Positions 41,216 to 58,915 of a stretch of 64,000 bases of DNA are shown here, piece by piece. The position numbers and the translations under genes were made by a program. Positions within the stretch are counted from its first letter, which is position 1. The number at the start of each line of letters is the position of its first letter. This DNA is from a virus. Below the pieces are notes generated by a model. The model was not told where the DNA came from. It saw only the letters and a program-made list of their open reading frames with translations, and ran no database searches. The stretch spans positions 64,001 to 128,000 of the IMG/VR virus record IMGVR_UViG_3300030102_006261; one strand, written 5' to 3'.

Positions 41216-43177
41216 ATGAGTGTAGAGTTACCAAGTTTATATCAGTCGTTCATTCATCTATCCCGTTACTCTAGGTGGTTACCCGAGAAGGGAAGAAGAG
41301 AGACTTGGTCTGAGACTGTTGGTCGTTACTTTGATTTCTTTGAAGGACATCTAAAAGAATATCATAATTATAAAGTAACTAAAAAAGAAAGAGAAGAGTT
41401 AGAACAAGCAGTTCTTAATTTAGAAATCATGCCTTCGATGCGAGCTTTGATGACCGCTGGTGATGCATTAAAGCGAGATAATATTGCTGGTTATAACTGC
41501 TCTTTTGTGAGTGCAGGTAGAGTTCGTTCATTTGATGAAATCTTGTATGTTCTGATGTGTGGGACTGGAGTAGGGTTCAGTGTTGAACGAGACTTTCTTA
41601 AGAAACTACCTACCATAGCAGAGGAGTTTGAGGGTAGTGATACGACCATTGTTGTACAAGATAGTAAGATGGGTTGGGCCAAGTCGTATAAGGAACTCAC
41701 CTCCCTTCTTATTGGAGGTCAGATTCCCAAGTGGGATCTCTCGAAGATTCGACCTGCCGGAGCGAAACTCAAGACTTTCGGTGGTAGAGCTTCGGGGCCA
41801 GAACCACTGGACGATTTATTCCGGTTCACAGTGGAAACCTATAAAAAGGCTGCTGGAAGAAAACTCACCTCCATCGAATGTCACGATATCGTCTGCAAGA
41901 TTGCTGAGATTGTCGTTGTTGGGGGGGTACGTCGAAGTGCCCTTATCTCACTATCTTCGCTTACCGATGAGCGGATGCGCGATGCGAAGCACGGACAGTG
42001 GTGGATTTCCGACCCTCAAAGAGCACTATCGAATAACTCGGTAGCTTATCGAGAGAAGCCAGAAATCGGCACATTCATGGAGGAGTGGCTCTCCCTCTAT
42101 AAGAGTAAGTCTGGTGAACGAGGTATTTTCAATCGTGACGCAGCACAGAAACAAATTGAACGTGCAAACGAACACCGTCAGAGCATGGGTGATGGATATC
42201 GTCTTCGTGAATCCAACCACGAGTTTGGTACAAACCCCTGTAGTGAGATTATTCTTCGCGATAAGGAATTTTGTAATCTAACTGAAATTGTCATTCGTGG
42301 TGATGATACCGCAGAGTCTCTAGAAAGAAAGGTTCGACTTGCTACCATTCTTGGTACATGGCAGTCTACTCTGACTAACTTCAAGTACCTCTCAAGTGAG
42401 TGGGAGCGTAACTGTGAGGACGAGAGACTTCTTGGTGTGTCTATGACTGGTATCATGGACTGCAAGCTGACGAACGGTAAATCTAGGGGTCTACAAGAGC
42501 TTCTGACAAACCTGAAGACTGCTGCAATCCAAGAAAACAAGAAAGCAGCGAAGAACATCGGAATCAATGAGTCTGTCGCTATTACTTGTGTTAAACCCAG
42601 TGGAACCGTCTCTCAGCTTGTAGACGCAGCATCAGGTATTCACGCTCGTCACAATCCATACTATGTCCGCACAGTCCGTGCTGATATGAAAGATCCTCTG
42701 TGTAGATTCATGGAAACTCAGGGATTCCCTTGTGAGCCAGATGTAATGAAACCAGAACACACTATGGTGTTTTCTTTCCCAATGAAGACACCAAAGAGTG
42801 CCGTGTTCAGGACGGACATGACTGCAATCGAACAGTTGGAGCTTTGGTTGCAGTATCAAAGATTTTGGTGTGAACACAAGCCTTCAATCACTGTCTCTGT
42901 GAAGGAGGATGAGTGGATGGGTGTTGGTGCATGGGTATGGGAACACTTTGATGAAGTTTCCGGTGTTTCTTTCTTACCTTTCTCAGATCATACATATAAG
43001 CAAGCACCATATCAGGACTGCACTGATGTGGAATATGAAGAACTTTTAACATCCATGCCACAAGATGTGGATTGGAGCAAATTGGGAGAGTACGAACAGG
43101 AAGATAACACAGCGGGAACGCAGACGTTTGCCTGTTCTGGAAATTCATGCGAAGTAGTTGACTTAACAACAAATTAA
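41216..43177 (+). CDS. nrdJ: Class II (adenosylcobalamin-dependent) ribonucleotide reductase
   Basis: YNC, GTGVGFS, VGGVRRSA, TNPCSEI, FCNL, TCVKPSGT, C-terminal C.G.SC; no beta subunit adjacent. Confidence 0.92.
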   Translation: MSVELPSLYQSFIHLSRYSRWLPEKGRRETWSETVGRYFDFFEGHLKEYHNYKVTKKEREELEQAVLNLEIMPSMRALMTAGDALKRDNIAGYNCSFVSAGRVRSFDEILYVLMCGTGVGFSVERDFLKKLPTIAEEFEGSDTTIVVQDSKMGWAKSYKELTSLLIGGQIPKWDLSKIRPAGAKLKTFGGRASGPEPLDDLFRFTVETYKKAAGRKLTSIECHDIVCKIAEIVVVGGVRRSALISLSSLTDERMRDAKHGQWWISDPQRALSNNSVAYREKPEIGTFMEEWLSLYKSKSGERGIFNRDAAQKQIERANEHRQSMGDGYRLRESNHEFGTNPCSEIILRDKEFCNLTEIVIRGDDTAESLERKVRLATILGTWQSTLTNFKYLSSEWERNCEDERLLGVSMTGIMDCKLTNGKSRGLQELLTNLKTAAIQENKKAAKNIGINESVAITCVKPSGTVSQLVDAASGIHARHNPYYVRTVRADMKDPLCRFMETQGFPCEPDVMKPEHTMVFSFPMKTPKSAVFRTDMTAIEQLELWLQYQRFWCEHKPSITVSVKEDEWMGVGAWVWEHFDEVSGVSFLPFSDHTYKQAPYQDCTDVEYEELLTSMPQDVDWSKLGEYEQEDNTAGTQTFACSGNSCEVVDLTTN

Positions 43178-43186
43178 ACGTATAAT
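43158..43186 (+). promoter_or_regulatory. Near-consensus sigma70 promoter for the peptide-porin operon
   Basis: TTGACT-17 nt-TATAAT. Confidence 0.75.
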
Positions 43187-43254
43187 AGAACTTTTATTAA
43201 TCCAGTGTGTTCGTCGGAGAATGAACACATATACTCTAACAAAAGGAGAAACCT

Positions 43255-43449
43255 ATGAGTAAAACTACTGGAGATTGCCCCGCCGCAGGTTGCGGCAAAG
43301 ATTTTGTACAGAATTGGCTTGGAAAGATCGGAATCACCCGTTCCCTCCTCGTCACACTCGCTCTCGTGCCTTTCGCATGGGATGGTGTCCTTTGGTTCCG
43401 CGATGCGGTCGCAACCGTTTGGGACTCAGTAACCACTTGGGGTGGCTAA
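43255..43449 (+). CDS. Small membrane protein with N-terminal CxxxxC
   Basis: Strong SD AAAAGGAGA; hydrophobic LLVTLALVPFAW segment. Confidence 0.7.
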   Translation: MSKTTGDCPAAGCGKDFVQNWLGKIGITRSLLVTLALVPFAWDGVLWFRDAVATVWDSVTTWGG

Positions 43450-43470
43450 AGCCACTAAAGGAGAATCACT

Positions 43471-44499
43471 ATGATTAATATTGCAACTATTCTTCTTTCT
43501 GCACCTCTCATGAGTGGTGCAGCGGAAAACGTTAACGTTCATGAACTCATCATGGGGGTTCGCGAAGATTCTGCAACTCGCATGAGTCTTCGGGGTGACG
43601 ACAGTCCCGTTACTGTCGATGTTTCTGGTTTCCTTCAGTTCCGTTATCTTTACAATGATGCCGGCTCGAATGAAGCCACCAGAGGATTTGACATTGATCG
43701 TGCCCGGATTAAGTTTTCGGGTGAAGCGTATGAATTTGGATATGCGATCAGTGGACAGTGGAGTGATACTGAGTTTGAACTCAAGGATGCGTTCCTCACC
43801 AAGAACATTGGTGGGTTTGATGTCAAGGCGGGGCAGTTCGTAACTAGTTTCTATAACGGTTACGTCTCTGATCCAACCACGCTTGTGACTGGTGACTACA
43901 GCATCACTGCTCTAACTTATGGACAGGGTTACTCGCAAGGTATTGAAGTTAGCAGAGAGTACGATTCTTTCTCATTCTACGCATCATATAACGATGGCTT
44001 CAACACCGACAACAGTAGCTTTGGTGACAATGACTATGGAGTCAGTGGACGAGTGGAATTTACTGGTATCGATAACGTGACTCTTGGTGGTGCATTTGCA
44101 AATGAGCAGACTGCAACTGAGAGCTATGATACTTACACGTTTGATGCCAGTTTTGATTTTGATGAGTTTGTATTTGATGCTGCGTATGTCGCATCAAATC
44201 GTGTTGAAGATAGCTGGAACAACTACTCCATTGTTGGCACTGCCAGCTACGTCATGAGTTCTGATTTCCAGATTTTTGGACAATACGAGTATGGTGTCAT
44301 GGAAGGTGCCATGTCTGATCTGAATATTGGAACAATTGGTGCGAATATTATCTTCAACCCCAATGTTCGTTGGACTAACTCTTTTGGATATGCGTTTAAC
44401 GCTGTCGATGGTGGATACAACCTGTCCGACACTGGATGGGAAAGCTCCTCTACCGACGGTCAGTATGTCATCAAGAGTATGTTGACTATCAGTTTTTGA
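43471..44499 (+). CDS. Outer-membrane beta-barrel porin (OprO/OprP-like)
   Basis: Signal-like N-terminus, SGFLQFRY, GF.IDRARI.FSG, L.DA, GQF, alternating beta strands, C-terminal Phe; strong SD. Confidence 0.8.
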   Translation: MINIATILLSAPLMSGAAENVNVHELIMGVREDSATRMSLRGDDSPVTVDVSGFLQFRYLYNDAGSNEATRGFDIDRARIKFSGEAYEFGYAISGQWSDTEFELKDAFLTKNIGGFDVKAGQFVTSFYNGYVSDPTTLVTGDYSITALTYGQGYSQGIEVSREYDSFSFYASYNDGFNTDNSSFGDNDYGVSGRVEFTGIDNVTLGGAFANEQTATESYDTYTFDASFDFDEFVFDAAYVASNRVEDSWNNYSIVGTASYVMSSDFQIFGQYEYGVMEGAMSDLNIGTIGANIIFNPNVRWTNSFGYAFNAVDGGYNLSDTGWESSSTDGQYVIKSMLTISF

Positions 44500-44520
44500 T
44501 ATATAAAGTTATATAATGAG

Positions 44521-44547
44521 GGACTGGATCACCCTCTATCCGTGTGC
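44521..44547 (-). ncRNA. Anti-16S-tail element copy 1 (27-nt repeat)
   Basis: + strand GGACTGGATCACCCTCTATCCGTGTGC, 26/27 identical to 53590-53616. Confidence 0.5.
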
Positions 44548-44580
44548 AAGAGGGGACTTTAAAGTCCCCTCTTGTTATTT
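44547..44580 (+). terminator. Rho-independent terminator of the porin operon
   Basis: Perfect inverted repeat CAAGAGGGGACTTT/AAAGTCCCCTCTTG followed by TTATTT. Confidence 0.8.
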
Positions 44581-44653
44581 AATAATTTGTTACTATTTTT
44601 ATATTTTTTATTTTGTAGTGAACACTTTTTCTTGTAATATTGATTACTGGCAT
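44579..44653 (-). CDS. Unannotated 24-aa basic peptide MPVINITRKSVHYKIKNIKIVTNY
   Basis: SD AAGGGAG 7 nt before the ATG; late-like CATAAATA just upstream. Confidence 0.4.
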   Translation of the reverse strand: MPVINITRKSVHYKIKNIKIVTNY

Positions 44654-44662
44654 CGTGTGTCT

Positions 44663-44702
44663 CCCTTGCAAGTATTTATGTTATATAAGTACTTGTGAAG
44701 GG
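44663..44702. promoter_or_regulatory. Divergent late-promoter/RBS palindrome
   Basis: CATAAATA (-) and TATAAGTA (+) back to back inside an imperfect inverted repeat with AAGGGA on both strands. Confidence 0.45.
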
Positions 44703-44710
44703 AAATATGT

Positions 44711-45277
44711 ATGATTGTAGCGGGAATCGATTATTCATTGTGCGGACCAGCGATCTGTGTATTTAAGGGTGAAGACTTGGATGTGTTTTCATTTAGTAAA
44801 TGTAAATTTTACTATCTGACAGACACTAAAAAATATGCAAAAACTTTTCTTACTAACATACACGGAAGTGTTTTTGAAGAGTATAATCATGATTGTGAGC
44901 GTTACGACACAATTTCCTCTTGGGCGGCTGATGTGTGTTACGGATGTGAACAAGTTGGACTAGAGGGATATGCATATGGAGCTAAGGGTAGAGTATTTCA
45001 TATCGCAGAAAACACTGGTATATTAAAGTACAAATTCTTTCAGAATAATATTCCAGTTGAAGTAATAACTCCATCTGAAGTTAAGAAACGTGCATGTGGG
45101 AAAGGTAATGCAAACAAAGCGGATATGCACAGTGCCTTTCGAAAAGACACTGGATATGATTTGACTAAAATAATGACACCAGATAAAAAAGAAGTTACGA
45201 ATCCGGTGTCTGATATTGTCGATGCTTACTATGTTTGCAAATGTTTGCACGATAACATAAAATATACACTGATTTAA
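44711..45277 (+). CDS. RuvC-like Holliday junction resolvase
   Basis: AGIDYS, LEGYAYG, PS.VKK...GKGNA.K, DIVDAY. Confidence 0.85.
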   Translation: MIVAGIDYSLCGPAICVFKGEDLDVFSFSKCKFYYLTDTKKYAKTFLTNIHGSVFEEYNHDCERYDTISSWAADVCYGCEQVGLEGYAYGAKGRVFHIAENTGILKYKFFQNNIPVEVITPSEVKKRACGKGNANKADMHSAFRKDTGYDLTKIMTPDKKEVTNPVSDIVDAYYVCKCLHDNIKYTLI

Positions 45278-58826: not shown

Positions 58827-58915
58827 AACCCCCACCAAAGACGGATCACCCTCTGACTAATGGTGGGGGTTTTAGCGCGGTCCCAAGGTAGCGGGCGCAA
58901 AGCCCATCGGCGCTA
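58827..58915 (-). ncRNA. Double-hairpin element with loops complementary to 23S rRNA 1920-1935 and the 16S 3' tail
   Basis: Stems TAGCGC/GCGCTA and AACCCCCACCA/TGGTGGGGGTT; + strand loop sequences CGGTCCCAAGGTAGCG and GGATCACCCTCT. Confidence 0.55.

Follow-up and report, generated by a model that had tools for sequence, protein, structure and literature searches.

What is the function of a 27-nt sequence that stands at the end of a porin operon, just before the terminator, and why does nearly the same sequence lie between two other genes 9 kb away? The source is an uncultured marine T4-like phage. The window, as the whole stretch analysed is called here, has 64,000 nucleotides and spans bases 64001-128000 of an IMG/VR virus contig that is 142,160 bases long and has a G+C content of 40%. 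Up to window position 45277 the genes lie on the + strand; from 45340 on they lie on the minus strand. Nine gene starts are preceded, at distances of 7-43 nt, by the T4 late-promoter motif TATAAATA. The related contigs all come from marine metagenomes, and their T4-like gene content includes a family-B DNA polymerase, a RecA-like protein, a DnaB-like helicase, ThyX and a class II RNR.

The copy at the porin operon is termed c1 and the distant one c2 (Table 1). Positions 44521-44547 and 53590-53616 agree at 26 of 27 bases, the single difference being T/C, and no dinucleotide shuffle reached two matches. The flanks of the two copies are unrelated. The shorter sequence GGATCACCYYCT occurs three times in the window, and the rest of the 142-kb contig adds no further copy. 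All three are intergenic and + strand, against about 0.02 occurrences expected. These observations bear out what an earlier note on this DNA had described, as do the hairpin and T-run directly after the element (44546-44575) and the porin-family identity of the upstream ORF, whose homologues carry PF13609/PF07396.

Table 1. Positions in the window of the features discussed in the text.
Feature	Position	Strand	Basis
Sigma70-type promoter, near-consensus (TTGACT, 17 nt, TATAAT), of the operon ending in c1	43160..43188	+	read directly
64-aa ORF, first gene of the operon	43255..43449	+	ORF list
342-aa porin-family ORF	43471..44499	+	domains of homologues
Weak hairpin P1: GAGGG (44518-44522), loop ACUGGAUCA (44523-44531), CCCUC (44532-44536)	44518..44536	+	minimum-energy fold
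c1, 27-nt conserved core, proposed pairing region	44521..44547	+	complement of minus-strand c2
Intrinsic terminator that ends the porin operon (stem of 13 bp, loop of 4 nt, T-rich tail)	44546..44585	+	terminator scan
Late-promoter motif TATAAATA beyond the c2 terminator	53508-53515		motif scan
Intrinsic terminator after c2	53524..53545	-	terminator scan
Long hairpin enclosing c2, covarying outer stems	53548..53652	-	per-clade RNAalifold
c2, proposed target; minus-strand RNA complementary to c1 and to the 16S 3' tail	53590..53616	-	conserved at the same position in 10 distinct sequences
Small membrane-protein ORF with c2 in its 3'UTR; conserved core is the last 41 aa	53658..53849	-	ORF list, relatives
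Sigma70-like promoter (TTGCCA, 16 nt, TATAAT) from which the small ORF and c2 would be transcribed	53933..53960	-	scan, 11/12 matches
c3, match of 12 nt within a terminator-hairpin loop (hairpin at 58830-58871); membership doubtful	58843..58854	-	

The third occurrence, c3, had been taken as a further copy of the same module. It shares only 12 bases with the element. By simple arithmetic, some 12-mer of the 27-mer would turn up about 0.3 times by chance on the two strands of 142 kb, and the match is not significant. In the sole relative that has it, c3 reads CACTCTCT, and the changed base breaks the match and is unfavourable for pairing with both c1 and 16S rRNA. It is absent in clade B, and ranks only about twelfth among the duplex partners of c1 in the contig; a search for further copies found it in G001 only. 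As a non-significant 12-mer with an unremarkable predicted c1 duplex and no clade-B counterpart, c3 was rejected as a third copy.

The surroundings of c1 correct another part of the earlier description, in which every copy lay shortly 3' of a minus-strand stop codon. Both neighbours of c1 are + strand genes, the porin gene ending at 44499 and a RuvC-like resolvase gene at 44711-45277, and the minus-strand stops nearby belong only to spurious ORFs. Of the 9 relatives checked, 8 share the promoter of the operon that c1 ends, some 310 nt before the porin start, and a gene of 64-65 aa is called at the matching place in relatives. The 342-aa ORF gave no direct match in Pfam, PHROG or NCBIfam; its homologues, at 39-71% identity, carry Porin_4 (PF13609) and Porin_O_P (PF07396), the latter being phosphate-selective. 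The porin operon (43160-44499) is of early type, and its product may be auxiliary for nutrient or phosphate uptake or for envelope remodelling. Two further candidates at this place were discarded: a separate sigma70 promoter for c1 (TTGACT, 16 nt, TAAAGT, 44482-44509), which is weak, partly coding and absent from clade B, and a mechanical 60-aa ORF (44516-44698), which is not conserved and has no ATG in the relative L005.

Downstream of c1, the Shine-Dalgarno (SD) sequence of the RuvC-like gene (AAGGGA) is sequestered in a hairpin, UCCCUUGCAAGUA / UACUUGUGAAGGGA (window 44662-44703), with TATATAA in the loop. In the relative L015 the stem reads CCUCGU/ACGAGG and therefore covaries. A similar hairpin is present in T4 at gene e, soc and I-TevI, where a late promoter inside it frees the SD.

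At the 3' end of the porin transcript, a G+C-rich hairpin with seven G-C pairs in its stem is followed by a U-run, as is typical of an intrinsic terminator, and the fold of 44512-44585 has a z of -4.7. At -7 kcal/mol, the weak hairpin P1 is no more stable than shuffled sequence (z = 0). Opposite the pyrimidine run, relatives have retained a run of purines at this position, namely GGGGGG/CCCUCU with two G.U pairs (L005 and L006), AGAG/CUCU and AGAG/CUUU; like the stem ACUCAUU/AAUGGGU in L056, the G.U-containing forms are valid on the + strand only. The folding model has the c1 core accessible, with P1 weak and the clade-A linker UAUCCGUGUGC unpaired. The earlier note had further supposed that on a minus-strand transcript GAGGG would pair with CCCUC and hide an SD-like run; no minus-strand gene covers c1, and the G.U pairs favour the + strand.

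A switch acting in cis can be drawn at this locus. CCCUCU of c1 would have two alternative partners, GAGGG upstream of it and AGAGGG in the terminator 5' arm (the antiterminator of the earlier note), and would thereby control where the porin transcript ends. The window sequence permits both pairings, with the element directly against the terminator. We nevertheless consider such a switch highly improbable: in L015 the arm reads AGAAGGG, and this G to A change is compensated within the terminator 3' arm (G-C to A-U) and not in c1. The antiterminator shows no covariation. The clade-B terminators (GCCCCCGCC..., GAACCCCCUCC...) are unrelated C-rich hairpins that cannot pair with the element, and the minimum-energy fold leaves the 13-bp terminator intact.

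The element was then followed through its relatives. Exact-pattern scans of viral and metagenome collections found it in two syntenic contexts only, either after a porin gene (c1) or between a small membrane-protein ORF and a terminator with a late promoter (c2). A scan of 596 Gb of bacterial genomes gave a single match, in a GC-rich coding region of a Chthonomonadales MAG, against about two expected by chance in the scan. In clade A, c1 is nearly invariant in six distinct sequences, one of which has UUGG for CUGG (T for C at the fourth base), although the porins are only 73-83% identical to that of the window; the terminator loops and the flanks vary. This near-invariance indicates that c1 is under selection. 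In clade B, where the porins are 65-73% identical to that of the window, c1 consists only of CUGCUGGAUCAC and a short pyrimidine run, lies in the loop of another stem of 7-10 bp, and is followed by an unrelated terminator. The flanks of c1 and c2 diverge in relatives while both copies stay at the same two positions. In clade C the porin gene is followed only by a terminator, and c1, the small ORF and c2 are all missing. This co-occurrence was scored from L053-L055, as L009-L012 are fragments without the c2 region. The shared absence speaks for a link between c1 and c2 but counts as one evolutionary event. In L048 and L049 the small gene is present and c2 is not; no porin gene lies in the stretches analysed there, which makes them uninformative on co-occurrence.

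Two side observations concern these relatives. In clade C (L053:18883-19711, L054, L055) the porin gene is accompanied by a cytidylyltransferase-like gene, and a 1424-aa minus-strand gene is inserted after the porin gene. In the distant relative L049 (1014-1130) a tRNA-like sequence takes the place of c2 after the small membrane ORF.

The repeat might also be a product of events at the DNA level (a duplication, a gene-conversion tract, or part of a mobile cassette of terminator and promoter) with no function of its own. The T4-type phages contain PeSL cassettes, which combine a sigma70 promoter with a stem-loop and number about 50 per genome (Arbiol et al. 2010, PMC2839356), and these phages shuffle genes at such repeated regulatory cassettes. 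Like PeSLs, c1 and c2 are repeated intergenic sequences beside terminators and promoters in a T4-like genome; both lie at boundaries of gene modules, and an HNH-like ORF adjoins c2. The conservation just described makes this origin very unlikely, since a scar would decay, whereas the core is kept in two clades with porins about 67% identical and with intergenic flanks that can not be aligned. Instead of about 50 copies there are two, or three, in 142 kb, the 27-mer is neither a promoter nor a stem-loop and lies outside the promoter and the terminator stem, and the pattern occurs at these two positions only in public collections.

The c2 unit has a layout of its own. Its promoter precedes the stop codon of the small ORF by about 288 nt, and 8 of 9 relatives have it at an equal distance. 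The promoter lies within an HNH-like ORF, so that coding constraint may account for part of its conservation. This HNH-endonuclease-like ORF (PHROG 2081; 53785-54252, minus strand) is directly upstream of the small membrane ORF. Because a cross-clade MAFFT alignment had misaligned the stems, RNAalifold was run per clade. The outer stems of the c2 hairpin change from A-U to G-C and from U-A to C-G between the window, L034 and L040, and the inner stem UAGGGGGU/ACCCUUUA contains two G.U pairs that are valid on the minus strand only.

Two partners compete for the 5' arm of the c2 RNA (CUAUUCGUGU), namely the 3' arm of the long stem and the core segment ACACGGAUAG, and clade B has matching changes, CUUAUC with GGUAGG or GAUAGG. 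This comparison suggests two mutually exclusive c2 folds, which c1 binding would bias. A clade-B variant in L056 (16020-16360) reads GGACCAC and CCUCCC, both T to C, and is the sole sequence with an altered GGATCAC core.

How, then, are c1 and c2 related? They have the same orientation in the DNA, and c1 lies between + strand genes while c2 lies between minus-strand genes. Identical orientation combined with opposite transcription means that the two RNAs would be complementary to each other rather than one and the same RNA. The idea of a functional RNA module can be kept in so far as the near-invariant sequence and the G.U-compatible stems point to selection on an RNA, and has to be given up as to three copies of one module. 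We conclude that c1 most likely makes an RNA that pairs with its opposite-sense twin c2 as regulator and target, a proposal that comes from sequence comparison and that we give about an even chance of being correct.

The complementarity was quantified as contiguous, ungapped blocks around GGAUCAC, with G.U pairs allowed, in the six genomes that hold both loci. The c1(+):c2(-) blocks are 27, 28, 28, 18, 18 and 19 bp, in contrast with 14, 10, 11, 13, 15 and 11 bp for the opposite sense in the same genomes; the six pairs come from two clades only, with about eight independent substitutions. Extended complementarity of two separately transcribed RNAs (transcription being predicted) is thus present in the sense orientation in all six. 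Wherever the two copies differ within the blocks, c1 has U where c2 has C, or G where c2 has A, and the transcribed sense forms a G.U wobble pair. L056 is the clearest example, in which the GGACCAC of c2 faces a c1 that still reads GGAUCAC, and a U.G pair is kept. Some of the G-for-A differences in c1 could instead serve its own hairpin. The two copies also change in concert: GACUGGAUCAC is found in both clade-A copies and ACUGCUGGAUCAC in both clade-B copies, and a 3-nt indel and a different 5' extension separate the clades, each being present in both copies. The proposed regulator and target consequently covary across genomes, in few independent events. The clade-A linker UAUCCGUGUGC is invariant though it has no partner in cis.

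Energy calculations agree with the block counts. Across the contig, c2(-) is by far the best duplex partner of c1, at -57.9 kcal/mol against -36 for the next. Cofolding with c2(-) yields a net -8 to -24 kcal/mol as compared with 0 to -8 kcal/mol for the same-sense control, and each of the five genomes tested is predicted to form the duplex. When long flanks were included, RNAduplex energies were inflated and showed no preference for the forward sense in clade B; ungapped block counts and cofolding were used in its place. A sigma70-like promoter is conserved in each unit, which would allow the two RNAs to occur at the same time.

The same pattern can be read at the level of DNA, with c1 and c2 as two double-stranded sites for one sequence-specific protein engaged in regulation, packaging or recombination synapsis, the nearby RNA features being unrelated. 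All copies have one DNA orientation, a near-invariant core with freely diverging flanks is typical of such sites, the core contains GATC, and concerted change between clades would follow from co-evolution with the protein. The T4 terminase offers a precedent, with two homologous 24-bp sites a few kb apart. Such sites do not predict that every c1/c2 difference is wobble-compatible in the transcribed senses, nor that stems with strand-specific G.U pairs occur at each copy, and a candidate binding protein was not found. We hold this alternative to be unlikely.

Pairing between c1 and c2 leaves some features of the two copies to other constraints. Clade-B c2 keeps ...CUGUGUGC despite the loss of that segment from c1, which argues that c2 is also under constraints unrelated to c1. 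The sequence UGGAUCAC is almost invariant in both copies, which mutual pairing alone does not demand and which hints at a fixed third partner, either 16S rRNA or a protein.

The likeness to 16S rRNA was examined with a textbook generic 3'-tail consensus, (GG)CUGGAUCACC. Against this tail c2(-) is the best complement of the contig at -26.5 kcal/mol, with the next at -21.5, the mean at -5.4 and a standard deviation of 2.8 kcal/mol. The 16S:c2(-) pairing block is 15-16 nt in six of six genomes, and the three departures of c2 from the tail are all wobble-compatible. On these sequence comparisons, such likeness is unlikely to arise by chance, and it is mainly a property of c2. The earlier note had described c1 on the + transcript as a mimic of the tail. 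This is correct for 9-12 contiguous bases and fails at the CCUCC core, in place of which c1 has CCCUCU, CUUUC, CUUCU or CCUCU; a mimic would have this core within tail-like sequence, where c1 continues from CUGGAUCACC with CUCU, or from CAC with UUUC or UUCU.

Could c1 act as a mimic by itself, with c2 unneeded? It would then titrate SD sequences, a nuclease directed at the anti-SD, or a protein that binds the tail, as the Era-type KH domain does. The shared 9-12 bases fit this idea, and UGGAUCAC is invariant in all c1 variants, as expected of a fixed partner. Toxins with cleavage sites in the anti-SD region are described (PMC12620021, PMC13284704). The functional CCUCC core is, however, not kept in c1, the clade-A linker UAUCCGUGUGC has no counterpart in 16S rRNA, and mimicry leaves unexplained why c1 tracks the clade-specific 5' extension and indel of c2. 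A mimic acting alone is thus quite unlikely in our estimate, and the tail likeness of c1 appears better explained by pairing with c2 than by mimicry selected in its own right.

A circuit that joins both likenesses can also be envisaged, and the near invariance of UGGAUCAC gives reason to consider it. In such a circuit c2 would be an orphan 16S complement of 15-16 nt that parks or sequesters the 30S subunit on a phage mRNA, and c1 would be a tail imitation that switches the docking site off. Pairing of c1 with c2 (18-28 bp) exceeds the reach of the ribosome (15-16 bp), so that c1 could turn docking off, and the G-rich c2 variants (AGGGGG, GGGAGGUGGUCC) can wobble-pair with both c1 and 16S rRNA, as the circuit requires. 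Taken as a whole, the circuit is rather unlikely.

Comparison with RNA families did not place the pair in a known class. A gathering-score search of the window against Rfam 15 matched no family, and permissive Rfam searches around all three copies and clade-B c2 returned only chance-level matches with E above 1. The weak matches to sraA and CC2171 were of this kind and were dismissed. The Rfam consensus of the Caulobacter sRNA CC2171 begins AAGGAGGUGAUCCAG, the same long 16S-tail complement as in clade-B c2; the match, at L040:3382-3473 on the minus strand, is non-significant (E = 8). A search for related loci with the 977-aa neighbour protein gave no match.

Among the known systems close to this pair is the c4 antisense RNA of phages P1 and P7 (immI), which Citron and Schuster are said to have described in 1992 (a reference listed in PMC8546580). 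It is likewise a short phage-encoded RNA whose exposed segments pair with complementary sites in phage transcripts; RNA and target co-vary between related phages, and the target includes a ribosome-binding sequence. In contrast, c4 is processed from the transcript of its own target and blocks a true ribosome-binding site (icd/ant), whereas c1 and c2 stand at the ends of different operons, one on each strand, and the target c2 has no start codon after it. In enterobacteria, CpxQ, SroC and MicL are base-pairing sRNAs derived from 3'UTRs. They share with c1 a pairing region just upstream of the parent terminator and parents that encode envelope proteins. The 18-28 bp of c1:c2 complementarity are far longer than the usual seed, and the proposed target does not appear to be at a translation start.

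CopA/CopT, RNAI/RNAII and Sok/hok are kissing-loop antisense pairs, each encoded in cis on opposite strands of one locus. As in c1 and c2, the hairpin loops of both partners expose complementary stretches of 8-9 nt, from which a long duplex could extend once nucleated; c1 and c2 differ in being two loci 7-9 kb apart. The STAB-SD of the Bacillus thuringiensis cryIIIA mRNA is an orphan Shine-Dalgarno stabiliser in the 5'UTR. Like it, c2(-) is a long complement of the 16S tail without a start codon behind it. The resemblance is that of c2 and not of c1, whose transcribed strand has the opposite, tail-like sense.

The pairing of c1 with c2 would work as follows. c1 would be the 3'-terminal RNA module of a sigma70-driven, early-type operon for a 64-aa peptide and a porin-family protein. 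Its core CUGGAUCAC and pyrimidine run, followed in clade A by the unpaired linker UAUCCGUGUGC, would be held immediately ahead of the terminator of the operon itself, within a large loop or a weak hairpin. This is the layout of a base-pairing RNA borne in a 3'UTR. With both RNAs presumably made at the same time, the core would pair in trans with c2 in the 3'UTR hairpin of the small membrane-protein unit 9 kb away, probably starting loop to loop between ACUGGAUCA and UGAUCCAGU. Two outcomes seem likeliest. The complement of c2 to the 16S tail would be masked, or a double-strand RNase would cut the duplex, strip both terminator hairpins and couple the decay of the two messages.

As defined RNAs of about 70 and about 140 nt, c1 and c2 can be tested in vitro without phage culture. 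Unmatched in Rfam, they would be a phage RNA pair in a field, the regulatory RNAs of lytic marine phages, that is almost unknown. If the pairing is real, it would be an RNA-RNA link internal to the phage between two operons for envelope proteins, and a testable case of a virus that uses the 16S tail sequence as a regulatory code.
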